In this document: positions 1,675-19,120 of the stretch, piece by piece
Layout of the letters: each line of letters starts with the position of its first letter
Numbering within the stretch: position 1 is the stretch's first letter
Origin: Escherichia coli
GTDB taxonomy: Bacteria; Pseudomonadota; Gammaproteobacteria; Enterobacterales; Enterobacteriaceae
Strand: one strand, 5' to 3'
DNA length: 64,000 nt
NCBI RefSeq assembly: GCF_036507355.1
Contig: NZ_AP027877.1
Made by a program: the position numbers and the translations under genes
The notes under the pieces: generated by a model
What the model was told of the DNA's origin: nothing
What the model saw: the letters and a program-made list of their open reading frames with translations, nothing else
Databases searched by the model: none

Positions 1675-3212
1675 TGGCAATCACTAAATCAACTCCGGCA
1701 CCATTAACCGGTGGGACGTTATGGTGCGTCACTATTGCATTGTCATTAGCGACGTTTATGCAAATGTTGGATTCCACTATTTCTAACGTCGCAATACCGA
1801 CAATATCTGGCTTTCTGGGAGCATCAACAGACGAAGGTACCTGGGTTATCACTTCGTTTGGCGTAGCAAATGCCATTGCGATCCCTGTTACCGGCAGGCT
1901 GGCACAAAGAATAGGCGAATTAAGGTTATTTTTACTTTCAGTCACTTTTTTTTCGCTGTCTTCCTTAATGTGTAGTTTATCGACCAATCTTGATGTGCTG
2001 ATATTTTTTAGAGTCGTTCAGGGGTTAATGGCGGGGCCGTTAATTCCACTGTCACAGAGTTTATTATTAAGGAATTATCCACCAGAAAAAAGGACATTTG
2101 CTCTGGCATTATGGTCAATGACCGTGATTATCGCTCCGATATGTGGGCCGATATTGGGCGGCTATATTTGTGATAACTTTAGCTGGGGTTGGATATTTTT
2201 AATCAATGTCCCTATGGGGATTATCGTCCTGACATTATGCTTAACCTTACTTAAAGGAAGAGAAACTGAGACTTCACCGGTCAAAATGAATCTACCAGGA
2301 CTGACCCTGTTAGTGCTCGGTGTTGGTGGCTTGCAAATTATGCTTGATAAAGGGCGCGATCTGGATTGGTTCAACTCGAGTACAATAATAATATTAACAG
2401 TAGTATCAGTTATTTCTCTGATCTCTTTAGTCATTTGGGAGTCGACCTCAGAGAACCCGATTCTTGATCTCAGTTTGTTTAAGTCCCGTAATTTCACCAT
2501 TGGTATTGTGAGTATCACATGCGCGTATTTATTTTACTCTGGAGCGATCGTCCTTATGCCGCAGTTATTCCAGGAAACGATGGGGTATAATGCGATATGG
2601 GCCGGACTTGCTTATGCGCCCATCGGCATCATGCCACTATTAATTTCACCTTTGATAGGACGTTATGGCAACAAAATAGACATGCGGTTGTTAGTGACAT
2701 TTAGTTTTTTGATGTATGCGGTTTGCTATTACTGGCGTTCTGTGACATTTATGCCAACGATTGATTTTACAGGTATCATTTTGCCGCAGTTTTTTCAGGG
2801 ATTCGCCGTTGCCTGTTTCTTTTTACCCTTAACAACGATTTCGTTTTCAGGCTTGCCAGATAATAAATTTGCCAATGCCTCGAGTATGAGTAATTTTTTT
2901 CGTACCTTGTCAGGATCAGTTGGTACATCGTTGACAATGACGCTGTGGGGGCGACGCGAATCGTTACACCATAGTCAGTTGACAGCAACCATCGATCAAT
3001 TTAACCCTGTATTTAATTCATCGTCACAAATTATGGATAAATACTATGGTTCGCTTTCAGGAGTTCTTAATGAAATTAATAATGAAATAACCCAGCAGTC
3101 ACTTTCTATTTCTGCAAATGAGATTTTCCGTATGGCGGCTATTGCTTTTATCTTACTTACGGTTTTGGTTTGGTTTGCGAAACCGCCGTTTACAGCGAAA
3201 GGCGTTGGGTGA
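1674..3212 (+). CDS. emrY: MFS multidrug efflux pump EmrY
   Basis: 512-aa ORF, multi-TM MFS (DHA2-like) protein, translationally coupled to emrK. Confidence 0.9.
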   Translation: MAITKSTPAPLTGGTLWCVTIALSLATFMQMLDSTISNVAIPTISGFLGASTDEGTWVITSFGVANAIAIPVTGRLAQRIGELRLFLLSVTFFSLSSLMCSLSTNLDVLIFFRVVQGLMAGPLIPLSQSLLLRNYPPEKRTFALALWSMTVIIAPICGPILGGYICDNFSWGWIFLINVPMGIIVLTLCLTLLKGRETETSPVKMNLPGLTLLVLGVGGLQIMLDKGRDLDWFNSSTIIILTVVSVISLISLVIWESTSENPILDLSLFKSRNFTIGIVSITCAYLFYSGAIVLMPQLFQETMGYNAIWAGLAYAPIGIMPLLISPLIGRYGNKIDMRLLVTFSFLMYAVCYYWRSVTFMPTIDFTGIILPQFFQGFAVACFFLPLTTISFSGLPDNKFANASSMSNFFRTLSGSVGTSLTMTLWGRRESLHHSQLTATIDQFNPVFNSSSQIMDKYYGSLSGVLNEINNEITQQSLSISANEIFRMAAIAFILLTVLVWFAKPPFTAKGVG

Positions 3213-3319
3213 TGGTAAAAGCAGGGGGTTATAGCGGGTAAGACCGGGGATCTTAAGTCTGCGCCATCGGCAGCATCGCTCACCCAGGGAAAGGATGGCG
3301 ATGCTGCGTTGAAATGTTA

Positions 3320-3568
3320 TTAACGGCCTTTTGCCAGATATTGATTCATCTCTTCTTCCGGCACCATTCCACCTCCCGTCGCCCACACCAGATGAGTGGC
3401 ATTACGCAGTTGTTCTGCGCTGAAACCGTGCATCAGTTGGTAACTTACTGATGCACACACGCGCTGAGGTCCGGCCATACCCGCCAGTGCCGAAGGTTCA
3501 AGACGAATACCTTCTTCCTGCGCCAACCCAAGAATTACAGTGCGGTTAGATGGCGGAAAGCCGGTCAA
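3320..3568 (-). pseudogene. dsdA: 3' remnant of D-serine dehydratase gene (about 83 C-terminal codons)
   Basis: Minus-strand frame ends ...[24 protein letters not shown], the DsdA C-terminus as recalled; similarity stops near 3570, after which the frame reads non-DsdA sequence; the track ORF uses an alternative TTG start. Confidence 0.75.
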
Positions 3569-3572
3569 GAGT

Positions 3573-3767
3573 GTTTGGGGAGGTGGGGAAGGCGGTGATT
3601 CTGCATTTGCTCCACAACCAATACAATTTATAAAGACCTTGGCTAAGCATAAAAAAGCTATTTTTGGGTTTGAACCTTATGGATCAACTATGCAAGTAGT
3701 TGAGTTTGACTTGTCTGAGATTGATAAGGTTGTGGAAAAAATTTCACAGTCTTGCAATTGGAAATAA
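3573..3767 (+). other. Open frame ending ...MQVVEFDLSEIDKVVEKISQSCNWK*, possibly the 3' end of an unknown gene in AT-rich foreign DNA
   Basis: Track ORF 3540-3767; its 5' part overlaps the dsdA remnant so only the distal part is plausible. Confidence 0.2.
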
Positions 3768-3784
3768 CAAAAAAATCTCATATG

Positions 3785-3808
3785 AACCCAGTTGGCTCTG
3801 GGTTTTTT
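3785..3808 (+). terminator. Rho-independent terminator
   Basis: AACCCAG-TTGGCT-CTGGGTT hairpin followed by TTTTTTATTT. Confidence 0.55.
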
Positions 3809-4145
3809 ATTTCTGTTGTCTATAATGTATTCATAATTTTTACTGGGATACAGTGCACATAAAATCCCAATTGCGGTAGGACGATAACTGGATCAGGTGG
3901 AGGCACTTACGCAAGAATTGATAGTATTAATTTGCATAGAGCAACGCGAAGTTATTTATAAATTAACTGATATAGAGTACTAGATGTAATCCGAACCGGT
4001 TATGATTCGTCACCAATTTTGCAAGAGGCTGGGTAGGTAAGCTATTGGATACCGTAGGTAGCAAAAATATAGAAGGAGGGGAAGAATTGCTAAACTCGAG
4101 CATTCACTTAAATCTGAGTTATTTATTGTTAAGATATAATACACT

Positions 4146-4409
4146 TTGAATAATAGAGGCTATATGACAACGAAAATAAGCAAAGATGATAAACATCTGC
4201 TTGATCCTTATTTAAAATGGCTTGCAAACAAGAAGCTAATGGTTGCCTTCTGGTTGGTGCTAATGATATGTGGTTGCATATATGCATATATAGAAAATGA
4301 TTGGTCACTTCTTCCCCGATTCGGATGTTTAGGCATAATGATTGGCACATTGCTTACTCTTTCTCCGCTTTTTGCAGAAGGTATCTACCTATCAAGGCGA
4401 GAAGCATGA
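4146..4409 (+). CDS. Hypothetical small membrane protein (87 aa, two predicted TM helices); stop codon supplied by the IS end
   Basis: ORF with hydrophobic segments LMVAFWLVLMICGCIYAYI and GCLGIMIGTLLTLSPLF; TGA at 4407-4409 is the first 3 nt of the IS, so the native 3' end may be lost. Confidence 0.35.
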   Translation: MNNRGYMTTKISKDDKHLLDPYLKWLANKKLMVAFWLVLMICGCIYAYIENDWSLLPRFGCLGIMIGTLLTLSPLFAEGIYLSRREA

Positions 4410-4424
4410 ATCGCCACGGATAAT

Positions 4425-5237
4425 CTAGACACTTCCGAGCCGTTGATAATACTGGTTTTCATATTCTGTCGGTGACATCTGATCGCTGGAACCATGCCGA
4501 CGCTTACTGTTATAAAACATTTCGATGTAATCAAAAATATCGCTGCGGGCTTCTTCCCGCGTTCCGTAGATCTTTTTCTTTATCCGTTCGCGTTTCAACA
4601 ACTGGAAAAAGCTTTCTGCAACCGCATTATCATGGCAGTTACCGCGACGGCTCATGCTGCCATCCAGGCCGTGTGATTTCAGGAACGACTGCCACTCATG
4701 GCTTGTGTACTGACTGCCCTGATCCGAATGAACCAGCACCTGTTTTTGGGGATTACGGCGCCATACAGCCATCAGCAGTGCGTTCAGGACAATGTCCTTT
4801 GTCATCCGGGATTGCATGGACCAGCCGATAATTTTGCGTGAGAACAGATCAACAACCACGGCAAGATACAGCCAGCCTTCGTGGGTCCTGATGTAGGTTA
4901 TGTCCGTTACCCAACGCTTATCCGGAGCATCCGGATTGAACTGTCGCTGGAGCCTGTTGGGCGACACGATACTGGCCTCGCCTTTACGTGCCCGCGGGCT
5001 CCGGTATCCGACCTGAGCCTTTATCCCGACACGTTTCATCAGTCGCCAGACTCTGTTCACTCCGCACTGTTGCCCGCTGTCCCGCAGATCCAGATGGATT
5101 TTGCGATAACCATAGACGCATCCCGATTCCAGCCAGAACTGTTTAATCTGCCCTGTCAGCCTCAGGTCTGCCTGATGGCGTTGTGAATGCGGCTGCTGAA
5201 GCCAGGCGTAAAAACCACTGGGATGAACATCCAGCAC
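4425..5237 (-). CDS. IS3-family transposase OrfB (DDE integrase domain); expressed as OrfAB fusion by -1 frameshift
   Basis: 270-aa ORF from first Met; motifs DITYIRTHEGWLYLAVVVDLFSRKIIGW and HSDQGSQYTS; frame stays open upstream of the Met. Confidence 0.8.
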   Translation of the reverse strand: MLDVHPSGFYAWLQQPHSQRHQADLRLTGQIKQFWLESGCVYGYRKIHLDLRDSGQQCGVNRVWRLMKRVGIKAQVGYRSPRARKGEASIVSPNRLQRQFNPDAPDKRWVTDITYIRTHEGWLYLAVVVDLFSRKIIGWSMQSRMTKDIVLNALLMAVWRRNPQKQVLVHSDQGSQYTSHEWQSFLKSHGLDGSMSRRGNCHDNAVAESFFQLLKRERIKKKIYGTREEARSDIFDYIEMFYNSKRRHGSSDQMSPTEYENQYYQRLGSV

Positions 5238-5293
5238 CCGACAGAGCAGGCGAACAGGCCAGCAACAGGTGTTGTCACGGATAAAGGCGTACC

Positions 5294-5578
5294 TCAGTCG
5301 GACAGCTTTGCGAAGTACGCCGCGGCTTTTTTTAATATGTCCCGTTCGTCGGTAACCCGCTTCAGCTCTTTCTGGAGACGGCGGATCTCGGCCTGAGCAT
5401 CTGACTGTTCTTTATTAGCGGAAGAATCCGGACCGTACTTCTTTATCCAGGCGTAAAGGCTGTGGGTGGTGATATCGAGACGTGTTGCAACGCTGGCAAC
5501 AGAATAACCGCGATCAACAACCTGTTTGACTGCTTCAATTTTAAACTCTTCGGGATAACGCTTACCGCTCATGGGCAC
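5294..5578 (-). CDS. IS3-family transposase OrfA (HTH plus leucine zipper)
   Basis: 94-aa ORF MPMSGKRYPEEFKIEAVKQV...; ends near an A7G slippery run. Confidence 0.8.
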   Translation of the reverse strand: MPMSGKRYPEEFKIEAVKQVVDRGYSVASVATRLDITTHSLYAWIKKYGPDSSANKEQSDAQAEIRRLQKELKRVTDERDILKKAAAYFAKLSD

Positions 5579-5635
5579 CTCTCTTTAAGCCATCTTAAAT
5601 GACTCTGAGGTGTCTGTTAAACCCGTGGCGATTCA

Positions 5636-6036
5636 GGAAGAGTTCGAAATACGCAGCGAAATTGTTGGAATTCAAATTAGTTGATCTTGACGTTCTTAAG
5701 CGAACATACTTCTTTTTTGCAGACCGTTATCTGGCAGATGTAGTGAAGTTTGAAAACCTATGTGGTGATTTAGAGCATACATCGCAGAAGGCTAGGGATG
5801 AAAAAATTAAGGCCATGCAATTAAAGACAAACGACCCTGAAATTCAGTTAGGTGTTTGTATTTTTGTTTGTTTCAGGTTGCGAAACAACCTTTTTCATGG
5901 ACCAAAATGGCGTTATTTGCTTGATGGGCAAGAGGATTTGCTCTTAATTGCCGGAAATTTTATACATTCTATTCTATTACAGGTGCCTAGTAGAGATGGC
6001 TGGGAATTCAAGAATATTTTAACTTCTACTGATTAG
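5636..6036 (+). pseudogene. 3' fragment of an Abi-like (Abi_2 / HEPN-type) abortive-infection gene, truncated at the IS boundary
   Basis: Open frame starts exactly at the IS end with no start codon; C-terminal ...FRLRNNLFHGPKWRYLLDGQEDLLL contains an Rx4H HEPN-like motif; AT-rich. Confidence 0.4.
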
Positions 6037-6221
6037 CTTTGATTTTCCATAATCAACCCGCCATAATCATGTCATCGGAGCCTGAACAACTCCGGTGACT
6101 TCTGCGCTTTGAGGGGACTCAAAGTGCAAACGACAATCAGAACACCTTTCAACCAGTCACAGATGCAGAAATGCACCTGCAATATCTTGCATCCAACGTT
6201 TGACCTCTGCGGAGGTGAAGC

Positions 6222-6677
6222 GTGAACCTCCCACAAGACGGCATCAAATTACATCGCGGTAACTTCACTGCTATCGGTCAGCAGATCCAGCCTTATCTGG
6301 AGGAAGGCAAATGCTTTCGCATGGTGCTTAAACCGTGGCGGGAGAGACGCAGTCTTTCCCAGAATGCACTCAGCCACATGTGGTACAGCGAAATCAGTGA
6401 ATACCTCATCAGCAGGGGTAAAACGTTCGCCACTCCAGATTGGGTAAAAGATGCTCTCAAACACACTTATCTCGGTTATGAAACCAAAGAACTGGTTGAT
6501 GTCGTAACCGGTGAGATCACCACTATCCAGTCGTTACGCCATACCTCCGATCTTGATACCGGAGAGATGTATATCTTCCTGTGTAAGGTTGAAGCCTGGG
6601 CGGTGAATATTGACTGCCACCTGACTATTCCGCAGAGCTGCGAGTTCCAGCTGCTGCGCGACAAGCAGGAGGCGTAA
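6222..6677 (+). CDS. YbcN-like / NinB-family phage protein
   Basis: 151-aa ORF, GTG start, position and size as ybcN in DLP12-type nin regions. Confidence 0.55.
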
Positions 6678-6839
6678 TGGCTACACCGCTTATTCGTGTC
6701 ATGAACGGACACATCTACAAAGTACCAAATCGTCGTAAGCGTAACCCTGAGCTGAAGCCATCCGAAATACCAACTCTGCTCGGATATACCGCCAGCCTGG
6801 TTGATAAAAAATGGTTGCGACTGGCAGCAAGGAGGAATC

Positions 6840-7130
6840 ATGGCTGATTTGAGAAAAGCAGCGCGTGGTCGGGAATGCCAGGTAAGAATCCCTGGCGTAT
6901 GTAATAGCAATTCTGAAACGTCTGTACTGGCACATATCCGGCTGGCTGGATTGTGCGGTACCGGTATCAAACCGCCAGACCTGATTGCCACCATCGCATG
7001 TTCTGCCTATCACGACGAAATCGACCGCCGCACACATTTTGTCGATGCTGAGTATGCAAAAGAATGCGCGCTGGAAGGTATGGCGAGAACACAGGTTATC
7101 TGGCTGAAAGAGGGGGTTATTAAGGCGTGA
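6840..7130 (+). CDS. YbcO-like (DUF1364) phage protein
   Basis: [22 protein letters not shown]...[13 protein letters not shown], matches recalled DLP12 YbcO; upstream of rusA as in DLP12. Confidence 0.6.
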
Positions 7131-7489
7131 ATACTTACAGCATCACATTACCCTGGCCTCCGAGCAATAATCGCTATTACCGCCATAATCGCGGGCGCAC
7201 GCACATCAGCGCAGAGGGGCAGGCATACCGCGATAACGTCGCCCGAATCATTAAAAACGCAATGCTGGATATCGGCCTGGCTATTCCTGTGAAAATCCGC
7301 ATTGAGTGTCACATGCCGGATCGCCGTCGCCGTGACCTGGATAATCTGCAAAAAGCTGCTTTTGACGCACTTACCAAAGCAGGTTTCTGGCTGGATGATG
7401 CTCAGGTCGTTGATTACCGCGTTGTGAAGATGCCGGTTGTCAAAGGTGGAAAGCTGGAACTGACCATCACTGAACTGGGAGATGAATGA
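7127..7489 (+). CDS. rusA: Holliday junction resolvase RusA
   Basis: 120 aa, [26 protein letters not shown]..., near-identical to recalled RusA. Confidence 0.9.
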
Positions 7490-7626
7490 TGTTTGAGTTT
7501 TATACGGCAGAACTTCTTCGCCACCGCTGGATGCGCCTGCGCTTATATCGTTTCCCCGGTTCTGTTTTGACCGATTACCGAATACTGAGGAATTACGCCA
7601 AAACCCTGACAGGAGCAGGAGTATGA
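7489..7626 (+). CDS. ylcG: YlcG-like small phage protein (45 aa)
   Basis: ATG overlapping rusA stop (ATGA coupling); [24 protein letters not shown]...; below the ORF-track size cutoff, read by hand. Confidence 0.5.
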   Translation: MFEFYTAELLRHRWMRLRLYRFPGSVLTDYRILRNYAKTLTGAGV

Positions 7627-7696
7627 AGTCAGAGATAACAATCAACTAATACTGTTTTGTTGATTTTTGCTTGTAATTGGCGTTCTGGTCTGATTT

Positions 7697-8089
7697 TTGT
7701 GGAGTAAGTTGATGCGTGATATTCAGATGGTTCTTGAGCGTTGGGGAGCGTGGGCGGCTAATAATCATGAAGATGTGACCTGGTCGTCCATTGCCGCCGG
7801 TTTTAAGGGATTAATTCCTTCAAAAGTAAAATCTCGCCCACAATGTTGTGACGATGACGCGATGATCATTTGCGGGTGCATGGCCCGTCTGAAAAAGAAC
7901 AACAGCGATTTGCATGATTTATTGGTGGACTATTATGTCGGCGGCATGACTTTTATGGCGCTTGCACGTAAGCATGGGCGATCTGATTGTTGGGTTGGCA
8001 GGATGCTCCAGAAAGCTGAGGGCGTAGTGGAGGGTATGCTGATGGTGTTGGATCTCCGATTGGAGATGGATGCTGATTGTTCGAAATAA
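7697..8089 (+). CDS. Late-gene antitermination protein Q (QuuD / phage-82-type)
   Basis: 130-aa ORF (true start may be Met at 7712); Cys-rich zinc-binding region [16 protein letters not shown]; followed by terminator tR'. Confidence 0.8.
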
Positions 8090-8187
8090 TTAAAGGAAAA
8101 GTTGCTGTCTGATTGTCATTAGTCTAACATTTTAAATGTTGGAATCGCAACGTAGTTATTATCATATAACAGCTTGTTTCCTGATTT
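8090..8187 (+). promoter_or_regulatory. Probable late promoter pR' / qut region
   Basis: Position immediately 3' of Q and 5' of a strong terminator, as in lambdoid late control regions; promoter hexamers not confidently assigned. Confidence 0.3.
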
Positions 8188-8217
8188 AGCCAGCCTCCCC
8201 AAAGGCTGGTTTTTTTC
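8188..8217 (+). terminator. Rho-independent terminator (tR'-like)
   Basis: AGCCAGCCT-CCCCAA-AGGCTGGT hairpin followed by TTTTTTT. Confidence 0.55.
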
Positions 8218-8244
8218 TAATAAGTATTATTTCGGGTAGGGATT

Positions 8245-8769
8245 TTATTGTTTAACCCATAATAATTCATTGACATTGAATCCCAACTTTTGAGCGGTTC
8301 GCACATAGTCTGCTTTTACTTTATCTGGAATAGTTGGGGTCCTTGCCAGAATCCATAGGTATTCTCTGTTCGGACCACTGACAAGAGCATACTTATACTC
8401 ATCATCCAGTTTGATTACATTATAGCCACCATAGAAGGGGCCAAAAAACGAAACCTTCAATGCTGCAGTTTTAGTATCTCCAGTAAAGTATGCTTTACCT
8501 TCGCTCTCGCTCCATTTATTTTTCGTTGGATCGTATCCACGGTTAAGTACACGAATCCCTCCGTCGTTCCGTTTTCCATAAGTAGCGCTGACCTGTTCCA
8601 GATCACGTTCGAACCGGTTCTCGAGGCGAGCTATTTCATACCATTTTCCGAGGTAGCGGTTGGCGTCAAAATTTGTAATCGGCTGCACACCTTTAGGTGG
8701 TGTCGGGGCCTTACATGCTATAAGAGTGAAAGAGAGTGCAATGCCAGTCAACACAGGCCATAACTTCAT
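8245..8769 (-). CDS. Outer-membrane lipocalin, Blc homologue (lipoprotein)
   Basis: 174 aa; lipobox LIAC; NFDANRYLGKWYEIARLENRFERDLEQV...KVSFFGPFYGGYNVI closely parallels E. coli Blc; opposite strand to phage late genes. Confidence 0.85.
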   Translation of the reverse strand: MKLWPVLTGIALSFTLIACKAPTPPKGVQPITNFDANRYLGKWYEIARLENRFERDLEQVSATYGKRNDGGIRVLNRGYDPTKNKWSESEGKAYFTGDTKTAALKVSFFGPFYGGYNVIKLDDEYKYALVSGPNREYLWILARTPTIPDKVKADYVRTAQKLGFNVNELLWVKQ

Positions 8770-8961
8770 AATAAATCCTGTACTTTTGATAGTTGAGAGT
8801 AAGTATGAAAGATAGATGATTACGACCGATCACTTAAAGAACTTTCATACTATATTAGGAATAGTCCATAACAGAAAAATTGTCAGTGATGACGCCAGAA
8901 AGGCAATTTATTCCGTGCACTACACAGTTTATGTGTTAATGAATTAGTCAAGGGGGAGAAT

Positions 8962-9921
8962 ATGATAAAAAAACCTGTGATTGGAATCAGCGGTTGTTTG
9001 GCCGGTTCTGCTGTTCGTTTTGATGGTGGTCACAAAAGAGCTGACTTTTTAATGGACAAATTAGTGGAATGGGTAACATTCAGACCAGTATGTCCGGAAA
9101 TGGCTATAGGGCTGCCAGTTCCGCGTCCTGCTCTACGTCTTGTGCGCTCGACGCAAGGAAATATACGGATGTGTTTCAGCCACGACCAGAATGAGGATGT
9201 GACAGAGAGAATGACAGAGTTTAGTCGTTCTTATATGGACAAATTAAAGGATGTATCGGGGTTTGTGGTTTGTGCTAAATCTCCCAGCTGTGGCATGGAG
9301 CGCGTGCGTGTCTATGATGAAAATGGTAATCGAGGTCGTAAAGATGGAGTGGGACTATTTACGAGTACTTTGATGGAAAAGTTTTCCTGGCTACCGGTTG
9401 AAGAGGATGGGCGATTACATGATCCAGTGCTTCGTGAGAATTTTGTTGAAAGAGTTTTTGCTTTGCATGAGCTCAATCACCTTTACAAGGAGAAATTATC
9501 AAGAAGAGAGTTATTAGCTTTTCATAGTCGTTATAAGCTTCAGTTGTTGGCGCATAGTCAGGCAGGCTATAAAGATATGGGACCATTTGTGGCTGCAATA
9601 CACGAGTGGGCGGACCTTGAATCATACTTTGAGGTGTATCGTGATAAGCTGATGGCGATTCTCAGAAAACCTGCATCACGTAAAAATCACACGAATGTGC
9701 TGATGCATATACAGGGGTATTTTAGTAACTACTTAAGTACACGCCAGCGTAAAGAGTTGAGCGAGGTTATACTTAACTATCGTTCTGGCACATTACCTCT
9801 TCTTGCGCCGTTGACTCTGCTGAAGCATTATCTGGGTGAGTATCCTAATGATTACTTGCTTACACAGAATTACTTCGATCCCTATCCGGACGAACTGGCT
9901 CTAAGACTGATGGTAAATTAA
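8962..9921 (+). CDS. DUF523 (TudS-like thiouracil desulfidase, Fe-S) fused to DUF1722 (YbgA-like) protein
   Basis: 319 aa; N-terminal GISGCLAGSAVRFDGG, PVCPEMAIGLPVPR and SPSCGMERV cysteine motifs typical of DUF523; C-terminal LRENFVERVFALHEL...YKLQLLAHSQAGY typical of DUF1722. Confidence 0.55.
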   Translation: MIKKPVIGISGCLAGSAVRFDGGHKRADFLMDKLVEWVTFRPVCPEMAIGLPVPRPALRLVRSTQGNIRMCFSHDQNEDVTERMTEFSRSYMDKLKDVSGFVVCAKSPSCGMERVRVYDENGNRGRKDGVGLFTSTLMEKFSWLPVEEDGRLHDPVLRENFVERVFALHELNHLYKEKLSRRELLAFHSRYKLQLLAHSQAGYKDMGPFVAAIHEWADLESYFEVYRDKLMAILRKPASRKNHTNVLMHIQGYFSNYLSTRQRKELSEVILNYRSGTLPLLAPLTLLKHYLGEYPNDYLLTQNYFDPYPDELALRLMVN

Positions 9922-10263
9922 TTGTATGCGATATCATCCAAAAGGATGAGTTCCTGCATGCAGGATATTTACAATCGTAAAAACTACACTATGATACCCA
10001 GAGTGTCAGTTTGTATAAAAACTCTGTTTACGCTGAAGAAACAATTGAGATGCAACTTAAAGTTGGTAAACATGCCAGTCAAAATATATAATATTATGAT
10101 TCCACGCAGCTATATATAATATAACAGATTGGTTTAATAATTTGTCTTTGTGAGTTAAATACATAATTTTATACTTGTGATGCAATGAAATTTTCCTTAT
10201 TGTTGAACTGGCGAATATTGATTTTCCACCTATACTTACCTGGTGTAACCCCAATGATATCAG

Positions 10264-11004
10264 GTGGATAATATGCCATACATATGTTCTATCATTTTGG
10301 TGTTGAACTCGTTTGATGTCCGAATTGGTAAAGAAGATATTTTGTTTAAAAAAGGAAGTGCTGTTCTCATTGATTACAATTTAAAAGATTTTTTTTCATC
10401 AAATATAGATCATGTAATGATCGTAGATGTTGAAGAGAAAACAGTTAATGATTTCTTTAAAAGCAACACACTCTCACCTTTTTCTGTAAGAAGGTTTTAT
10501 CCGGCATACTTGATGGTGGAATGTGAAGATTTTTCATTGTTAAAGAACTTGATTGCATGCTTGAATTGTGATGGCAGAACTGTGGATTTTGTTAGAAATC
10601 AAATATCACTTGCATGTCTTGCTATCTTATCTTCAGAGAAAATAGTGCAAAGTTTTTTATTTGGATGTCTTAATAGTTTAGGAAGTAAAGTTAAGGCTAT
10701 TATTCACACGGATATATCTGCAGCATGGAGACTTTGTGATATATCTTCAAGACTGTATCTGAGTGAAAGTCTGTTAAAAAGAAAATTAAAGCACGAAGGC
10801 TTATCATTTAGTAAGTTAATTCTTGAAGAGCGAATGGTGATGGCGGAAAGGTTATTAAGCTACAATTTATATTCTGTTGGAAAAGTTGCTGAGATATGCG
10901 GTTATGAAAACACGTCATATTTTGTGAGTGTTTTCAGAAGATATTTTGGTGTTCCTCCCCATCAATATTCATCAAGATTTTTTTTAGAAAAAGACATGAT
11001 GTAA
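10264..11004 (+). CDS. AraC-family transcriptional regulator, AppY/EnvY-like
   Basis: 246 aa; C-terminal double HTH (WRLCDISSRLYLSESLLKRKLK...VGKVAEICGYENTSYFVSVFRRYFGVPP); very AT-rich gene and upstream region. Confidence 0.8.
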   Translation: MDNMPYICSIILVLNSFDVRIGKEDILFKKGSAVLIDYNLKDFFSSNIDHVMIVDVEEKTVNDFFKSNTLSPFSVRRFYPAYLMVECEDFSLLKNLIACLNCDGRTVDFVRNQISLACLAILSSEKIVQSFLFGCLNSLGSKVKAIIHTDISAAWRLCDISSRLYLSESLLKRKLKHEGLSFSKLILEERMVMAERLLSYNLYSVGKVAEICGYENTSYFVSVFRRYFGVPPHQYSSRFFLEKDMM

Positions 11005-11065
11005 CATGATGCGTTTTAATGATTTTGTAATTTTCGTATTTGATAATTGTATGATGCTTTCAGCT

Positions 11066-11097
11066 ACGCCAGAATAATCGCTGGCGTTTTTCTTTTT
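11066..11097 (+). terminator. Rho-independent terminator after the AraC-like gene
   Basis: ACGCCAG-AATAATCG-CTGGCGT hairpin followed by TTTTTCTTTTT. Confidence 0.4.
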
Positions 11098-11192
11098 GAA
11101 TAGATGTTCAAGCCTTACGCTAATGTAACTTCTATACCTTTCCTCTTCGTTCCGAACCGTGTACACCATCCGTTATTTGCGGAGGTGAGGCT

Positions 11193-11408
11193 ATGAAATC
11201 TATGGATAAGTTAACAACGGGCATTGCCTACGGCACCTCCGCAGGCAGTGCTGGCTACTGGTTTTTACAGTTGCTCGATAAAGTCACGCCCTCACAGTGG
11301 GCAGCAATAGGTGTGCTGGGTAGCCTGGTATTTGGCCTGCTGACGTACCTGACAAACCTTTATTTCAAGATTAAAGAAGATAAGCGCAAGGCTGCGAGAG
11401 GTGAATAA
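11193..11408 (+). CDS. Class II holin (phage-21 S21-type pinholin)
   Basis: 71 aa, [26 protein letters not shown]..., two TM segments, matches recalled S21/EssD. Confidence 0.85.
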
Positions 11409-11905
11409 TGCCTCCATCATTACGAAAAGCCGTTGCTGCTGCTATTGGTGGCGGAGCAATTGCTATAGCATCAGTGTTAATCACTGGCCCAAGTGGTAAC
11501 GATGGTCTGGAAGGTGTCAGCTACATACCATACAAAGATATTGTTGGTGTATGGACTGTATGTCACGGGCATACAGGAAAAGACATCATGCTCGGTAAAA
11601 CGTATACCAAAGCAGAATGCAAAGCCCTCCTGAATAAAGACCTTGCCACGGTCGCCAGACAAATTAACCCGTACATAAAAGTTGATATACCGGAAACAAC
11701 GCGCGGCGCTCTTTACTTGTTCGTTTACAACGTGGGCGCTGGCAATTTCAGAACATCGACGCTTCTTCGCAAAATAAACCAGGGCGATATCAAAGGCGCA
11801 TGTGATCAGCTACGTCGCTGGACATATGCTGGCGGTAAGCAATGGAAAGGGCTGATGACTCGCCGTGAGATTGAGCGTGAAGTCTGTTTGTGGGGGCAAC
11901 AATGA
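11408..11905 (+). CDS. SAR endolysin (phage-21 R-type lysozyme)
   Basis: 165 aa; N-terminal Gly/Ala-rich signal-anchor-release segment [18 protein letters not shown]; lysozyme catalytic region. Confidence 0.88.
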
Positions 11906-12345
11906 GTAGAGTAACCGCGATTATCTCCGCTCTGGTTATCAGCATCATCGTCTGCCTGTCATGGGCTGTTAATCATTACCGTGATAACGCCATGACCTAC
12001 AAAGAACAGCGCGACAAAGCCACATCCATCATCGCTGACATGCAGAAGCGTCAACATGATGTAGCAGAACTCGACGCCAGATACACAAAGGAGCTTGCTG
12101 ATGCTAACGCGACTATCGAAAGTCTTCGTGCTGATGTTTCTGCTGGTCGTAAGTGGCTGCACGTCAAAGCAGTCTGTCCGGACAAGCATAAAACCACCGC
12201 CGCCTCCGGCGTGGATGATGCTTCCAGCCCCAGACTTACTGACACCGCTCAACGGGATTATTTCGTTCTCAGAGAGCGCATCGAAACCATAACTAACCAA
12301 TTGAATGGCCTGCAAGAATATGTGAGATCACAGTGTTCATATTAG
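11902..12345 (+). CDS. i-spanin Rz
   Basis: N-terminal TM helix then coiled-coil periplasmic domain; overlaps endolysin stop. Confidence 0.8.
12101..12292 (+). CDS. o-spanin Rz1 (lipoprotein) embedded in +1 frame of Rz
   Basis: Lipobox LVVSGC followed by Pro-rich stretch KPPPPPAW; entirely inside Rz. Confidence 0.65.
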
Positions 12346-12758
12346 AAAAGTCTTATCATAAGATTTTTGTATATGGATGCATTATGTCTCAATACGCTCA
12401 CGTTGCTTTAATCGCTTATCATTTGGTGGCTGATAGCTCAATGACTCCTCGTGATGCATGGGATGCAGCTATCGCAGAGGTTACAGAAAGCGAATCGTCA
12501 AGAAAGAAGATATGCCCAAGGGCAACATTTCTCGCCCTGGCGGATAGCGGTTACCTGAAGAATGTAAAACCACTGCATGGGGAGAAAAAGGGCGGTAAGT
12601 TGTACCAAAGGGCAATTGAAGTTGCGAATCTGATTCTTGATTTACCCGGAATCAGTAAAGCTGAATTGGTTGATAAAACTGGTTACAAAGACAGGCAAGG
12701 GTCTTATGACCTGATTCTCGCTCTGTATCATCATGAGCAACTCCAGCGATCGGAATAA
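12333..12758 (+). CDS. YbcV-like hypothetical phage protein
   Basis: 141-aa ORF (start possibly Met at 12386) at the position of ybcV in DLP12; no recognisable motif. Confidence 0.4.
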
Positions 12759-12875
12759 TTATCCCAGCATCAGTGTCAAAAATAGGCAGTGATACGCTAT
12801 TTTCCTGAAAATACTTTACTAACATTTTATGAGAATTATCCTAGTAATGTGTTTATTTAAAAGGAGTTTGGGTTT

Positions 12876-13079
12876 ATGAAAATTCTCTGGGTCATCAGTC
12901 TTTTGTGTAGTGCTATTGGATTTATTGAAGGAATCCTCGGGGTTTTCGGTGCTCAGAGTGCTCCACAACAGGCTGCAGGTGCAGCAATGGGAGTAGCATG
13001 GGCAGTTATTCCATATTGTATTTGTCGTGCTATCCAACAATTGCGCCCTCGAGAAGTCATTATTAAAAAGGAAGAATGA
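12876..13079 (+). CDS. YbcW-like small membrane protein (67 aa)
   Basis: ORF with RBS-like GGAG upstream; two hydrophobic segments. Confidence 0.4.
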   Translation: MKILWVISLLCSAIGFIEGILGVFGAQSAPQQAAGAAMGVAWAVIPYCICRAIQQLRPREVIIKKEE

Positions 13080-13144
13080 CCAGATCTTATCCGGTGTTTT
13101 TTCTGTCTAAGCCTCGCGTCGCGGGGCTTTTTATTGGAGCCAGC

Positions 13145-13495
13145 ATGCCACCACGAACACCAAAAGCCTGCCGTGTTCGCGGCTGCCGCCATACCACAAC
13201 TGACCCGTCAGGCTATTGCGAAAGCCACAAAAGTGAAGGCTGGAAGCAATACAAGCCGGGCCAGTCCAGACACCAGCGCGGTTATGGTTCGAAATGGGAT
13301 GTTATCCGTGAACGTGTGCTCAAGCGTGACAAAGGACTGTGTCAGTTATGTCTGCGTGGTGGTGTGGTACGTGAGGCGAAAACCGTTGACCACATCATCC
13401 CTAAAGCGCATGGCGGCACTGATGCCGACAGCAATCTGCAGAGCCTGTGCTGGCCGTGTCATAAGGCGAAGACGGCCCGTGAACGGTTGAAGTAA
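13145..13495 (+). CDS. HNH endonuclease (packaging-associated)
   Basis: CxxC...DHIIPKAHGGTDADSNLQSLCWPCH HNH motif; directly upstream of terminase genes; start taken at MPPRTPKA. Confidence 0.8.
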   Translation: MPPRTPKACRVRGCRHTTTDPSGYCESHKSEGWKQYKPGQSRHQRGYGSKWDVIRERVLKRDKGLCQLCLRGGVVREAKTVDHIIPKAHGGTDADSNLQSLCWPCHKAKTARERLK

Positions 13496-13611
13496 GAACC
13501 AGTTCCCACTGCCAGAGGGGAGGGGCGGGTCAAATCCCTGTGACCTGACGTCTTCCGGACTGCCCGCCCCATCGTTTTTTTATACCCGCGAAAAATGAAA
13601 TTTAACCAGGA

Positions 13612-14115
13612 GTGCCGCATATGGCTGGAACGGCGGGGCGTTCCGGGCGTCGCCCCAAGCCAACGGCGCGCAAGGCGCTGGCCGGAAACCCCGGCAAGCG
13701 AGCCCTGAATAAAGATGAACCTGTTTTTACGCCCATCAAAGGTGTTGAGCCACCGGAGTGGTTCGCTGAAGAAGATCTCCCTCTCGCCACGATCATGTGG
13801 CAACTGACAACCAAAGAACTCTGCGGTCAGGGCCTGCTGTGCGTGACTGACCTGGCGGTACTTGAGCGGTGGTGTGTGGCCTATGAGTTCTGGCGACGTG
13901 CCGTGAAAAATATTGCCAGACAGGGCAACACCATCACCGGTGCAATGGGCGGTATGGTCAAAAATCCTGAGCTGACCGCCAAAAAAGAACAGGAGTCCGA
14001 GATGAGCAGTACGGGGGCAATGCTCGGACTCGACCCCAGCAGCCGCCAGCGTCTGATTGGCCTGGCGGGGCAGAAGAAAGCCACTAACCCGTTTCTGAAA
14101 ATTATCGAATCATGA
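13612..14115 (+). CDS. Terminase small subunit (P27 family)
   Basis: 167-aa ORF preceding and overlapping terL; terminase small-subunit-like sequence. Confidence 0.7.
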
Positions 14116-15845
14116 GCCGGAAATCTTACCCCAACGTAAATGCTGCCAATCAGTATGCCCGGGATGTCGTTCGCGGAAAGATTGTGGCCTGCCAGTTTGT
14201 GATTCAGGCCTGCCAGCGCCATCTTGATGACCTGATGGCGGAAAAAAGTAAGTCGTTTCGTTACCGCTTCGACAAGGACCTGGCTGAACGGGCCGCCAAA
14301 TTTATTCAGCTGTTGCCGCATACCAAGGGTGAGTGGGCATTCAAACGGATGCCCATCACGCTGGAGCCGTGGCAGCTCTTTGTGATCTGCTGTGCGTTTG
14401 GCTGGGTCAATAAAGGTACCCGGCTGCGCCGCTTCCGGGAGGTGTATACCGAAATCCCCCGTAAGAACGGCAAATCGGCAATCTCTGCCGGTGTTGCCCT
14501 GTATTGTTTTGCCTGTGATAACGAGTTTGGCGCGGAAGTGTATTCCGGTGCCACGACAGAGAAACAGGCGTGGGAAGTCTTTCGCCCGGCGCGACTGATG
14601 TGTAAACGCACACCCATGCTGACGGAAGCGTTCGGGATTGAGGTTAACGCCTCAAACATGAACCGTCCGGAGGATGGCGCGCGGTTTGAACCGCTGATCG
14701 GTAACCCCGGTGATGGTTCATCACCCCACTGTGCTGTGGTGGATGAATATCACGAGCATGCCACAGATGCACTTTACACCACGATGCTTACCGGGATGGG
14801 CGCGCGACGTCAGCCACTGATGTGGGCCATTACTACTGCCGGGTACAACATTGAGGGGCCGTGCTACGACAAGCGGCGGGAAGTCATCGAGATGCTCAAC
14901 GGCTCGGTGCCCAACGATGAACTGTTCGGGATCATCTATACCGTTGATGAAGGTGACGACTGGACCGACCCGCAGGTGCTGGAAAAAGCCAATCCAAATA
15001 TTGGCGTGTCGGTTTATCGCGAATTTTTGTTAAGTCAGCAGCAGCGTGCGAAAAATAACGCCCGTCTGGCAAACGTCTTTAAAACAAAACACCTCAATAT
15101 CTGGGTGTCGGCGCGTTCGGCGTATTTCAACCTGGTGAGCTGGCAGAGCTGCGAGGATAAATCACTGACCCTTGAGCAGTTCGAGGGGCAGCCGTGCATT
15201 CTGGCCTTTGACCTGGCGCGCAAGCTGGATATGAACAGCATGGCGCGACTTTATACCCGCGAGATTGACGGTAAAACGCATTACTACAGTGTGGCCCCGC
15301 GTTTCTGGGTACCGTATGACACGGTGTACAGCGTCGAGAAAAATGAAGATCGCCGGACAGCCGAACGCTTTCAGAAATGGGTGGAAATGGGCGTTCTGAC
15401 CGTTACCGATGGTGCGGAGGTGGATTATCGCTACATCCTCGAGGAGGCCAAAGCGGCGAACAAAATCAGCCCGGTCAGTGAGTCACCCATCGACCCCTTC
15501 GGGGCGACCGGGTTGTCACATGACCTTGCTGATGAAGACCTGAACCCCATCACTATCATTCAGAACTACACCAACATGTCCGACCCGATGAAAGAGCTGG
15601 AAGCGGCAATTGAATCGGGGCGCTTTCATCATGATGGCAATCCCATCATGACCTGGTGTATCGGCAACGTGGTCGGCAAAACCATTCCGGGTAACGATGA
15701 TGTGGTGAAGCCCGTCAAAGAGCAGGCGGAAAACAAAATCGATGGTGCAGTTGCGCTGATTATGGCGGTTGGCAGAGCCATGCTGTACGAGAAAGAAGAC
15801 ACGCTGTCTGACCACATTGAGTCCTATGGGATCCGCTCGCTTTAA
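14112..15845 (+). CDS. Terminase large subunit
   Basis: 577 aa; ATPase and nuclease regions typical of TerL. Confidence 0.9.
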
Positions 15846-15856
15846 CTGAGGTAATT

Positions 15857-16039
15857 ATGATCATGCTGATTCTCGCGCCTCTGGTGGGCGTGCTGGGGGC
15901 GCTTTTGCTGGCGTATGGTGCCTGGCTGATTTATCCCCCGGCGGGGTTTGTTGTTGCCGGGGCGTTGTGCCTGTTCTGGTCGTGGCTGGTGGCGCGATAT
16001 CTCGACCGTACACAGTCGTCTGTCGGCGGAGGTAAATAG
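15857..16039 (+). CDS. Small hydrophobic phage protein (60 aa)
   Basis: ORF between terL and portal, mostly hydrophobic. Confidence 0.3.
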
Positions 16040-17280
16040 TGTTCTTTTCGGGATTATTTCAACGAAAAAGTGACGCACCGGTGACCACGCCAGCAGAGCT
16101 GGCGGATGCTATCGGGTTGTCCTACGACACCTATACCGGAAAGCAGATCAGCAGCCAGCGGGCCATGCGACTGACGGCGGTTTTTTCCTGTGTCAGGGTG
16201 CTGGCGGAGTCGGTCGGGATGTTGCCCTGCAACCTGTATCACCTGAACGGCAGCCTGAAGCAGAGAGCCACTGGCGAACGTCTGCATAAGCTGATCTCCA
16301 CGCATCCCAATGGCTATATGACGCCGCAGGAGTTCTGGGAGCTGGTGGTCACCTGTCTGTGCCTGCGGGGAAACTTTTACGCCTACAAAGTGAAAGCATT
16401 TGGCGAAGTGGCTGAACTGCTGCCCGTCGATCCCGGCTGTGTGGTACCGAAGCTTAACAGTAGCTGGGAGCCGATCTATCAGGTCACATTCCCGGATGGC
16501 TCCACGGATGTACTGAGCCAGGAGGATATCTGGCATGTGCGCACGCTGACGCTGGACGGACTGGTGGGGCTGAATCCCATCGCCTATGCCCGCGAGGCAA
16601 TATCGCTGGCAGCTGCGACCGAAGAGCACGGGGCCAGACTGTTCAGCAATGGCGCGGTGACGTCGGGTGTGTTGCGTACAGAGCAGACGCTGTCAGATCA
16701 GGCTTATGAGCGCCTGAAGAAAGATTTTGAGGAGCGTCACACCGGGCTTGGCAATGCTCACCGCCCGATGATCCTTGAGATGGGGCTGGACTGGAAGTCG
16801 ATGGCGCTGAACGCCGAGGACAGCCAGTTCCTGGAAACCCGCAAGTTTCAGCTTGAAGAAATCTGTCGTCTGTTCCGGGTGCCGTTGCACATGGTGCAGA
16901 ACACCGATCGCGCCACCTTCAACAATATCGAAGAGCTGGGGCTGGGATTTATCAACTATTCACTGGTGCCGTATCTGACCCGCATCGAACAGCGGATCAA
17001 CACCGGACTGGTACGAAAAAGTAAGCAGGGCGTTTATTACGCCAAATTTAACGCCGGGGCGTTACTGCGCGGGGATATGAAGTCCCGTTTTGAAGCCTAC
17101 GCCACCGGGATCAACTGGGGAATTTACTCTCCCAATGACTGCCGCGACCTGGAAGATATGAATCCGCGTCCCGGTGGTGATGTCTATCTCACACCGATGA
17201 ACATGACCACGAAACCCTCCGATGGCAGTAAGGCCGGTAAGCAGAAGGATAACGCCAATGCAGACGAAACAACGTCTTGA
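16039..17280 (+). CDS. Portal protein (HK97 family)
   Basis: 413 aa, position after terL, portal-like sequence. Confidence 0.85.
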   Translation: MFFSGLFQRKSDAPVTTPAELADAIGLSYDTYTGKQISSQRAMRLTAVFSCVRVLAESVGMLPCNLYHLNGSLKQRATGERLHKLISTHPNGYMTPQEFWELVVTCLCLRGNFYAYKVKAFGEVAELLPVDPGCVVPKLNSSWEPIYQVTFPDGSTDVLSQEDIWHVRTLTLDGLVGLNPIAYAREAISLAAATEEHGARLFSNGAVTSGVLRTEQTLSDQAYERLKKDFEERHTGLGNAHRPMILEMGLDWKSMALNAEDSQFLETRKFQLEEICRLFRVPLHMVQNTDRATFNNIEELGLGFINYSLVPYLTRIEQRINTGLVRKSKQGVYYAKFNAGALLRGDMKSRFEAYATGINWGIYSPNDCRDLEDMNPRPGGDVYLTPMNMTTKPSDGSKAGKQKDNANADETTS

Positions 17281-17908
17281 TGTACTGCTGAGTCTGAAAT
17301 CTGTCAGTGACTCCGGTGAGTTTGAAGGGTATGGCTCCGTCTTTGGTGTAAAGGACAGCCACGATGATGTGGTGATGTCCGGGGCATTTGCTGCTTCCCT
17401 GCGGGCGTGGAGTGACAGAAAAGCGTTACCTGCGCTGCTCTGGCAGCACCGCATGGATGAACCCATCGGTGTTTACACCGAAATGAAGGAAGACGATGTC
17501 GGGCTTTACGTCAGGGGACGGTTGCTTATTGATGATGATCCCCTCGCAAAACGCGCACATGCACACATGAAGGCCGGTTCGTTAACCGGCCTTTCTATTG
17601 GGTACGTCCTGAAAGACTGGGAATACGACCGGAGCAAAGAAGCCTTTCTGCTGAAAGAAATCGACCTCTGGGAAGTCAGCCTGGTGACGTTCCCGTCTAA
17701 CGACGAGGCGCGGATCAGCGACGTCAAGAACGCACTGGCCCGCGGGGAAATCCCCGAACAGAAAAAAATCGAAAGAGTCCTGCGTGATGTCGGACTCTCC
17801 CGTACCCAGGCCAAAGCATTCATGGCCGGGGGCTATGGCGCACTGTCCCTGCGCGACGCTGAGGATGTGGGCTCTGCACTGAATGCACTGAAAAATCTGA
17901 ACTTCTAA
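17258..17908 (+). CDS. Prohead protease (HK97 family)
   Basis: ORF following portal; start taken at MQTKQRLDVLL. Confidence 0.7.
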   Translation: MQTKQRLDVLLSLKSVSDSGEFEGYGSVFGVKDSHDDVVMSGAFAASLRAWSDRKALPALLWQHRMDEPIGVYTEMKEDDVGLYVRGRLLIDDDPLAKRAHAHMKAGSLTGLSIGYVLKDWEYDRSKEAFLLKEIDLWEVSLVTFPSNDEARISDVKNALARGEIPEQKKIERVLRDVGLSRTQAKAFMAGGYGALSLRDAEDVGSALNALKNLNF

Positions 17909-17922
17909 TCAGGAGAAATACG

Positions 17923-18582
17923 ATGGCGGTTGATATTAAAGATGTCGAACAGGTCGCGCAGGAGCTGCAGCAGAAGTTTGACGACTTCAAAGCAAAGAAC
18001 GACAAGCGCGTGGATGCGATTGAGCAGGAAAAAGGCAAGCTTGCCGGGCAGGTGGAAACCCTGAACGGGAAACTCAGCGAGCTGGAAAATCTCAAAAGCG
18101 ACCTTGAAAAAGAGCTGTTTGAGCTGAAACGTCCGGCAACGGCGTATGTCGAAAGCGGGGTGCTGCGCATTCAGCGTGATGTCACCACGTACAGGAAAAA
18201 TGCTTACGGGGTTGCGGATAACAGCTACCTCGACAGCGAGACGCTGCATACCAGTGCGTATGTACTGCGCAAACTGAAATCCGTCATTACCAGTAAGTAC
18301 GGGCGTCACAAGCTTGCCAGCGACGGTACCCGCTTTGGTCCCGGTCAGGCGATTGTCACCCCGGCGGTGATCAAAGGGGAACTGCTGGCAACCTACCGTC
18401 AGCTTGGGCGTGCGGGGATCGTGGAAAACTACGAACTGTTTAAGCAGTACCTGGTTGTGGAGCGTGATGCCAGCGATCCGAACCGCCTGAACACGCTGTT
18501 CCCGCCTGACTATGTTAACCAGTTGCGTGTCTTTGCCGTGGTTAACCAGTTCCGTCTTCAGTATTCAGAGGAGTCTGCATAA
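17923..18582 (+). CDS. Phage structural protein; N-terminal coiled-coil resembling the delta domain of an HK97-like major capsid protein but far too short (219 aa); probable deletion remnant
   Basis: N-terminus AQELQQKFDDFKAKNDKRVDAIEQEKGKLAGQVETLNGKL is delta-domain-like; a complete capsid gene would be about 400 codons. Confidence 0.35.
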   Translation: MAVDIKDVEQVAQELQQKFDDFKAKNDKRVDAIEQEKGKLAGQVETLNGKLSELENLKSDLEKELFELKRPATAYVESGVLRIQRDVTTYRKNAYGVADNSYLDSETLHTSAYVLRKLKSVITSKYGRHKLASDGTRFGPGQAIVTPAVIKGELLATYRQLGRAGIVENYELFKQYLVVERDASDPNRLNTLFPPDYVNQLRVFAVVNQFRLQYSEESA

Positions 18583-18938
18583 TGGCCCGTATCGGGGGAA
18601 CCTGTTATTTCAAAATTGACGGTCAGCAGCTATCGCTGACCGGCGGCATTGAGGTGCCCATGAACAGGACGGTCAATGATGACATCATCGGCCTGGACGG
18701 TTCAGTGGACCGCAAAGAAACTCACCGTGCGCCTTATGTCAAAGGGACCTTCAAGGTGCCGAAGAATTTTCCGGTGAGCAAAATCACCTCGTCTGATGAG
18801 ATGACCATCACTGCCGAGCTGGCAAACGGTCAGGTCTATGTACTGTCGTCTGCCTGGCTGCACGGCGAAGCGAACCATAATGCCGAAGAAGGCACGGTCG
18901 ATCTTGAGTTCCACGGTGAAGAAGGGGATTACCAGTAA
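18582..18938 (+). CDS. Hypothetical phage structural protein (118 aa)
   Basis: ORF coupled to flanking genes; no secure assignment. Confidence 0.3.
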   Translation: MARIGGTCYFKIDGQQLSLTGGIEVPMNRTVNDDIIGLDGSVDRKETHRAPYVKGTFKVPKNFPVSKITSSDEMTITAELANGQVYVLSSAWLHGEANHNAEEGTVDLEFHGEEGDYQ

Positions 18939-19120
18939 TGAAAGAGCTTGAGTTAAAGAAACCGATTACCGCTCATGGCGAGACACTCTCCGTACTGGAG
19001 TTTGATGAGCCCACCGGGAAAGATGTCCGCGAGCTGGGATATCCCTACCAGATGAATCAGGATGAGTCCGTCAGACTTCTGGCGCATGTGGTATCGAAAT
19101 ACATCGTGCGGCTGCCCTGA
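18938..19120 (+). CDS. Hypothetical phage protein (60 aa)
   Basis: ORF with ATGA overlap to next gene. Confidence 0.3.

Follow-up and report, generated by a model that had tools for sequence, protein, structure and literature searches.

A Blc-family lipocalin gene from a second enterobacterial lineage, paired with RudS in a cargo block of lambdoid prophages of Escherichia coli

Why does a prophage of Escherichia coli carry a lipocalin gene when the host already has the chromosomal lipocalin gene blc, and where did the prophage copy come from? The question is raised by a gene at 8245..8769 (minus strand) in the 64,000-nt stretch of E. coli DNA analysed here (contig NZ_AP027877.1, assembly GCF_036507355.1), hereafter the window. 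A preliminary description had read this gene as a Blc-like outer-membrane lipocalin encoded within a prophage, and had proposed that it is an unusual second paralogue of blc which could modify envelope lipid handling or stress tolerance of the lysogen.

The ORF starts with ATG, encodes 174 amino acids and spans exactly 8245..8769 on the minus strand. Its product matched Pfam PF08212 (Lipocalin_2; E 1e-43, 149 bits against a cut-off of 24) and the NCBIfam model NF007786 (PRK10477, 'outer membrane lipoprotein Blc') at 314.5 bits, above the curated cut-off of 267, with residues 1-174 covering profile positions 1-174 of 176 in an end-to-end match. The protein aligned without gaps to the E. coli Blc structures 3MBT and 1QWD (E 4e-68 for 3MBT), 98 of the 155 mature residues being identical (63%), and the allele is identical to WP_001544776.1. 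A lipoprotein signal peptide (8713..8769, minus strand) was read from the translation. The N-terminus, MKLWPVLTGIALSFTLIAC|K, carries the lipobox L-I-A-C at residues 16-19, with Cys19 colinear with the cysteine of E. coli Blc and a Lys at +2, and the lipocalin motif G-x-W-Y is present as G41-K-W43-Y44. A lipocalin beta-barrel is the expected fold at this level of identity to solved Blc structures. Lipidation at Cys19 and Lol sorting to the periplasmic face of the outer membrane are predicted, the latter because the +2 residue is Lys and not Asp. A search of the whole window found no second lipocalin gene. The protein belongs to PHROG family phrog_2809, to which no function is assigned. Judged from its sequence, this is a real and intact Blc-family outer-membrane lipoprotein gene, correctly identified in the preliminary description from its full-length alignment, lipobox and lipocalin core.

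The lipocalin gene lies in a defective prophage remnant at argW (5599..23654). An IS3-family element (4425..5578) abuts the left end of the remnant, intS (22461..23654, minus strand) marks the other end, and a tRNA-Arg gene follows at 23783..23854 (minus strand). This tRNA was the sole match in the Rfam scan, which found no RNA family near the lipocalin. No immunity, replication or recombination genes are left in the remnant. Near 18135 the capsid gene runs directly into a tail-sheath fragment, and a second deletion lies near 19105. None of the complete E. coli genomes contained at least 80% of window positions 1-24000. The earlier placement of the gene inside a prophage late region stands as regards its opposite strand and its position at the start of a lambdoid late region, but the carrier is a deleted remnant and not an intact prophage. 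At the prophage end, an Acyl_transf_3 family acyltransferase gene (21196-22320, minus strand) adjoins intS; to judge by family and location, it may serve in lysogenic conversion by modifying the O antigen.

The lipocalin runs against all its phage neighbours: plus-strand ybcO-rusA-ylcG-Q come before it, and a RudS/YbgA-like gene, an AraC-like gene and essD-rrrD-Rz come after it. The antiterminator Q gene (7697..8089, plus strand; PGAP start at 7712; Pfam Phage_antitermQ, E 2.5e-51) is followed by an intrinsic terminator at 8188..8218 (plus strand), found in the terminator scan as a hairpin with a 9-bp stem (8188..8211) and a T-run; the lipocalin gene has its 3' end 34 nt away, and the minus strand has no T-run here. 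By analogy with lambdoid architecture it is a candidate tR'-type, Q-controlled terminator of the late promoter. The RNA of 8120-8225 folds at -28 kcal/mol (z -4.5 against shuffled controls), and a second plus-strand hairpin lies at 8123-8143 within this Q-to-terminator interval. On the other side of the lipocalin, a 192-bp divergent spacer (8770..8961) separates it from a gene for a RudS-type tRNA 4-thiouridine desulfidase (8962..9921, plus strand; TudS/DUF523 and DUF1722 in Pfam). Next come a YdeO/GadX-like AraC-family regulator gene (10264..11004, plus strand; Pfam HTH_18/HTH_AraC) and a terminator-like hairpin from the terminator scan (11066..11097, plus strand). The lysis cassette (11193..12345, plus strand; essD holin, rrrD endolysin and Rz-like, annotated from E. 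coli Yu5) forms the downstream edge of the cargo slot. Yu5 is 98.7% identical to the window and colinear with it only over 6039-18138, with 2.35 kb at 100%.

In lambdoid phages the interval between Q and the lysis genes is a known slot for accessory cargo genes ('morons'), and both position and composition place the lipocalin block among them. In the viral contigs that reach far enough, a Q of 97-100% identity always flanks the lipocalin, with RudS and then an AraC-like allele (83-100%) on its other side, while differing types of rusA (40% or 94% identity) and of endolysin (33% or 96-99%) surround this constant block. The G+C content is 44% in the lipocalin, 38-47% across lipocalin and RudS and 30-34% in the AraC gene, whereas the nin and lysis regions on either side are at about 50%. 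The block also occupies different chromosomal prophage sites, argW here and a Qin-type remnant in E. coli HS. Constant between Q and holin amid differing phage modules, and distinct in G+C from the flanking phage DNA, the Q-lipocalin-RudS-AraC unit behaves as a moron block of mosaic lambdoid phages is expected to. In HS (NC_009800.1 1666673-1679197) the remnant that bears it is cryptic, carries essQ, rrrQ, rzpQ and cspI, and adjoins an IS1.

The gene is also common. It was found at a coverage of at least 80% in 1,044 of 5,426 complete E. coli genomes (about 19%). The matching records comprised 625 at an identity of at least 99% and 504 at 95-99%, and about 1,044-1,130 of the 5,426 genomes carry the gene at 95% identity or above. 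The 2.35-kb Q-lipocalin-RudS block was complete in 995 of these genomes (about 18%), out of 3,636 that matched part of the Q-to-RudS query. Twelve cultured coliphage genomes carry the lipocalin, IdasGreatGrand at 100% identity and eleven infant-gut lambda-like phages at 96.6%, the copies in the latter being annotated 'Lipocalin Blc'. A further set of about 45 IMG/VR viral contigs matched at 90-100% (44 at 97% or above), and no IMG/VR copies fell between 60% and 90%. Mathieu et al. (2020, PMC6969025) had already counted blc among the morons, with more than 50% of the lambda-like phages of the infant gut carrying it. The phage lipocalin is therefore an ordinary gene that has already been described, annotated in RefSeq and named in 2020 as one of the frequent morons in lambda-like phages of the gut, and the word 'unusual' in the preliminary description has to be withdrawn.

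To place the phage gene among its relatives, we searched a single genome of each bacterial species. Closest to it, with 74-82% identity, were genes on the chromosomes of Enterobacter, Leclercia, Buttiauxella, Kosakonia, Klebsiella and Kluyvera; for the mature proteins, the phage alleles are 80-82% identical to those of Enterobacter, Leclercia and Buttiauxella. A neighbour-joining tree resolved two enterobacterial clades, with the phage alleles inside clade A and both E. coli Blc and plasmid Blc in clade B. Identity values agree: the phage alleles are 63-65% identical to E. coli Blc, to Blc of CMY plasmids and to frd-ampC-sugE-linked genes. Buttiauxella agrestis and Kosakonia pseudosacchari carry both lineages, the second type being 55-57% identical. 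The prophage gene is thus not a paralogue of E. coli blc in the sense first proposed; it comes from a second enterobacterial lipocalin lineage.

The gene neighbourhoods separate the two clades in the same way. A RudS gene (DUF523+DUF1722) lies within 5 kb of the lipocalin in 10 of 23 clade-A loci and in none of 13 clade-B loci. An MlrA-like MerR regulator shows the same counts (10 of 23 against 0 of 13), and a transthyretin/uraH-like gene is present at 7 of the 23 clade-A loci. The 13 clade-B loci carry frdABCD/sugE instead, which are absent from phage and clade-A loci. In the usual clade-A order RudS, the uraH-like gene and the MerR gene share one strand and the lipocalin is divergent; in one Kluyvera locus (L018) RudS and lipocalin are directly divergent across a 114-bp spacer, compared with 192 bp in the phage. 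Five genera (Enterobacter, Leclercia, Buttiauxella, Kosakonia and Kluyvera) keep this divergent adjacency, as do all phage copies, and in an alignment of 11 upstream regions the DNA upstream of the phage lipocalin aligned with the promoter regions of chromosomal clade-A genes. The shared divergent pair and the homologous upstream DNA together indicate that both genes were taken up in a single capture, along with their regulatory DNA. The phage lipocalin has diverged from all chromosomal relatives to saturation at synonymous sites, and its GC3 is 40% against about 72% in the clade-A relatives, so none of the sampled species is a recent donor.

Linkage between lipocalin and RudS is confined to enterobacterial clade A. 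The broader idea that lipocalins widely occupy light-response clusters with photolyase, cfa or RudS was rejected: the loci of 44 more distant lipocalins (from Flavobacterium, Microbulbifer and other bacteria) had neither photolyase nor RudS nearby and showed only lineage-specific synteny, their neighbours being, by clustering and Pfam, lipoamide dehydrogenase-type proteins, Cys/Met PLP enzymes, DoxX and GMC oxidoreductases. Separately, an E. coli plasmid of 304 kb (NZ_CP081783.1) carries at 1-8986 an Enterobacter-type block of AAA ATPase, RudS, uraH, MerR regulator and clade-A lipocalin, in which the lipocalin is truncated, being interrupted where a hypothetical gene and two integrase genes adjoin it.

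Being antisense to the late operon, the phage lipocalin requires its own promoter. The alignment of 11 upstream regions placed a -10-like CATACT at 8807..8802 and a conserved box, TAATATAGTA, at 8857..8848 (both minus strand) within the divergent spacer, and both elements are homologous to the promoter region of the chromosomal clade-A lipocalins. The -10-like element reads CATACT in the phage and CTACACTT in the clade-A chromosomal genes, and the upstream region of E. coli blc carries the same CTACACTT core, as TCTACACTTAG. As CATACT departs from CTACACTT and is without the C at -13 that sigma-S promoters typically have, the regulation of the lipocalin cannot be read from the sequence. A generic sigma-70 promoter scan called no promoter upstream of the gene, and the terminator scan found no minus-strand terminator for it.

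RudS, a fusion of DUF523 and DUF1722, is a tRNA 4-thiouridine desulfidase (Jamontas et al. 2024, PMC11417400). The window RudS retains Cys12, Cys44 and Cys110 and is 93% identical to H3V29_gp66 of phage 1H12, the 'RudS_vir' of that study, which lowered tRNA s4U in E. coli, although less than other RudS proteins did (PMC11417400). RudS_vir (gp66) adjoins gp65, 'Lipocalin Blc', in 1H12; the main text of the RudS paper is silent on the lipocalin, and E. coli is said in that paper to have no RudS (PMC11417400). Contrary to that statement, about 18% of complete E. coli genomes possess RudS by way of the present block. The AraC-like protein scored 127 bits with the NCBIfam YdeO model, below its cut-off of 348. 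Its gene is very AT-rich (31-33% G+C), and its alleles in other phages are 52-100% identical, or 83-100% in the viral contigs with the lipocalin block. Two regions of EDL933 (1.63-1.69 Mb) in which we sought an AraC gene for comparison with the acid-resistance regulators PatE, PsrA and PsrB, which are prophage-encoded, contained none.

The coding sequence of the lipocalin has been well maintained. Between the window and 1H12 alleles there are 21 synonymous and 6 non-synonymous differences (dN/dS 0.074, dS 0.20), which points to strong purifying selection. Every annotated copy examined is an intact CDS with no pseudogene flag, and the gene is retained in decayed prophage remnants, both here and in HS. 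In E. coli Blc, 19 residues lie within 4 Å of the ligand, in a cavity that also holds vaccenic acid (Bozhanova 2020, PMC8177097). Eighteen of these 19 are identical in the phage lipocalin, the other being K77R, against an overall identity of 63%. Heme and hematoporphyrin also bind to this pocket of the host protein, which made hematoporphyrin much more light-sensitive in solution (PMC8177097), and its physiological ligand is disputed between lysophospholipid and heme/tetrapyrrole (PMC8177097 among other sources). The conserved pocket suggests that the phage lipocalin binds the Blc ligand class, namely lysophospholipids, fatty acids and possibly tetrapyrroles.

We consider it somewhat likely (probability about 0.6) that the lipocalin is a member of the cargo block that gives the lysogen a second, differently regulated lipocalin for envelope maintenance and stress, with Blc-like lipid binding. 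Under this reading, the lipocalin and RudS were taken from a clade-A chromosome as a divergent pair, the MerR regulator having been lost or never taken. The three-gene block of lipocalin, RudS and AraC-like regulator then spread with one Q allele among mosaic phages; in lambda-like E. coli phages its place is between the Q antiterminator with its terminator and the lysis genes. Late transcripts passing the terminator would cross the lipocalin in antisense and RudS and AraC in sense. Because the lipocalin points against the late operon, its expression is expected from its own promoter in the lysogen and not during lytic growth, and the lysogen would gain a second dose of an envelope-maintenance and stress lipocalin under different regulation. 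The suggestion in the preliminary description of a role in envelope lipid handling or stress tolerance is a plausible hypothesis. Several points count against this explanation: the pocket is nearly identical to that of host Blc, which clouds the benefit of a second copy; the promoter and terminator scans called neither element for the gene; its -10-like element has diverged; and the physiological ligand is disputed even for E. coli Blc.

An unlikely but attractive alternative makes lipocalin and RudS a single light/UVA-stress module that phages spread to E. coli, which is otherwise without RudS. RudS would remove photosensitive s4U, and the lipocalin would sequester photosensitising tetrapyrroles or photo-oxidised lipids in the envelope. 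The divergent adjacency kept in five genera and all phage copies speaks for it, as does the regulator found between the clade-A genes, an MlrA paralogue whose second-best NCBIfam match is the light sensor CarH. RudS genes have also been connected with light-responsive operons of the MerR/LitR type and with alleviation of the growth delay caused by UVA (PMC11417400), and the binding of heme and hematoporphyrin by E. coli Blc, with the increased light sensitivity of the latter, fits as well (PMC8177097). However, the phage copy has lost the MerR regulator, 13 of the 23 clade-A loci have no RudS nearby, the distant lipocalin loci show no linkage to RudS or photolyase, and adjacency alone could reflect co-capture. 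A more specific version is more doubtful still and frankly speculative: that an s4U eraser and a photosensitiser-scavenging lipocalin, drawn from a chromosomal islet that a MerR regulator of the MlrA/CarH type controls in other Enterobacteriaceae, and carried by lambda-like phages into about one fifth of E. coli strains, help lysogens to survive in sunlit, extra-intestinal environments. Should the pair prove to be a working stress module, which is likewise speculation, it would neatly illustrate how phages can spread traits for survival in the environment.

It is improbable that the lipocalin is a passenger, co-captured with RudS and without a selected function in E. coli lysogens. Its capture within a pre-existing gene pair and its apparent biochemical redundancy with host Blc would fit such a history, but the dN/dS of 0.074 at a dS of 0.20, the intact reading frame in each annotated copy examined and its persistence in decayed remnants do not. 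Less probable again is a role like that of Cor or Llp in superinfection exclusion or receptor masking, as opposed to host lipid handling. The gene does encode a prophage-borne outer-membrane lipoprotein in a moron slot, and among the morons of gut lambda-like phages membrane proteins dominate and sie genes are about as frequent (PMC6969025). Against this, neither the lipocalin nor RudS nor the AraC-like protein matched any PADLOC family at E <= 0.001, phrog_2809 carries no functional assignment, the closest relatives are chromosomal non-phage genes, and the conservation of 18 of 19 pocket residues points to binding of a small ligand and not of a receptor.

An assembly artefact, a recent duplication of host blc or an insertion of the plasmid ampC-blc-sugE module is excluded by the 58.6-59.2% identity to chromosomal Blc in HS, a genome that carries both genes, by the failure of a DNA search with the phage gene to detect E. 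coli blc, by the 61-65% identity to CMY-linked Blc with neither ampC nor sugE nearby, and by the presence of the same block in cultured phage genomes. Identity to host chromosomal blc had been named beforehand as the result that would overturn the preliminary description, and it was not found. In HS, where the chromosomal blc was located by synteny between sugE and ampC and the phage-type lipocalin lies in the Qin-type remnant, the two genes are about 66% identical over 329 nt of DNA and 58.6% identical as proteins. The proposal of a second lipocalin beside host blc is thereby confirmed, as is its distinctness from the plasmid lipocalins (67% DNA identity to the CMY-linked, Citrobacter-type gene). 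The sensitive DNA search with the phage lipocalin, which missed chromosomal blc, gave matches in only 1,408 of the 5,426 genomes. E. coli MS6198 carries the prophage lipocalin on its chromosome (NZ_CP015834.1) and a CMY-6-linked Citrobacter-type blc on plasmid pMS6198A; with the core chromosomal blc that we presume it to have, this strain would hold three lipocalin genes. GenBank OR845915.1 ('Escherichia phage ECO95 1-6-1', host O157; 1,479 bp) contains a clade-B lipocalin fragment distinct from E. coli blc. We rejected it as a source of E. coli chromosomal blc, its best matches being CMY-plasmid lipocalins at 82% in 303 genomes only, and it is probably non-phage contaminant DNA.

The phage lipocalin can now be set against the systems it most resembles. 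With E. coli Blc (P0A901; PDB 1QWD, 2ACO, 3MBT) it shares the family model, a gap-free colinear alignment and the position of lipobox and cysteine, and it probably works biochemically like the host protein. It differs in clade, in identity (59% for the precursor, 63% for the mature protein), in G+C content (44% against 53%) and in the -10 of its promoter, which has diverged. Its place in the tree is within clade A, apart from the clade-B frd-ampC-blc-sugE locus, and it has no frd-ampC-sugE neighbours. At position 84 the phage protein has Asn where the host has Gly; in host Blc this is the residue altered in the G84E variant, which is associated with inflammatory bowel disease. The host gene has been described as stationary-phase expressed (Bishop 1995, as reported in a citing paper). 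The plasmid ISEcp1-blaCMY-blc-sugE module is likewise a mobilised Blc-family lipocalin of E. coli, but its Blc belongs to clade B, sharing 89.7% identity with E. coli Blc and 64.5% with the phage protein, and travels with ampC and sugE, whereas the neighbours of the phage lipocalin are Q and RudS. Morganella phage IME1369_01 also bears an 'outer membrane lipoprotein Blc' (5001-5516) near its lysis genes. That protein is 51-53% identical to the phage lipocalin and forms a separate branch, and its gene is placed after the lysis genes and before the terminase, or the reverse, on the strand of the late genes, unlike the antisense coliphage gene; the separate branch and the other position and strand mark it as an independent acquisition.

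Two comparisons are closer. The 'blc' moron of Mathieu et al. 2020 (phage 1H12 gp65, 'Lipocalin Blc') is the same gene at 96.6% identity in the same Q-lipocalin-RudS-AraC-lysis arrangement; the allele differs, and the carrier here is a degraded remnant and not an inducible phage. The chromosomal clade-A lipocalins share the divergent RudS pairing and the homologous upstream DNA, from which the phage copy departs by its long branch and by having neither the MerR regulator nor the transthyretin/uraH-like gene. To these earlier accounts the present analysis adds that the phage gene stems from the second enterobacterial lipocalin lineage and is no copy of E. coli blc, that it was captured with its neighbour RudS from a MerR-regulated chromosomal pair, and that the ligand pocket of Blc has been kept in it under strong purifying selection.
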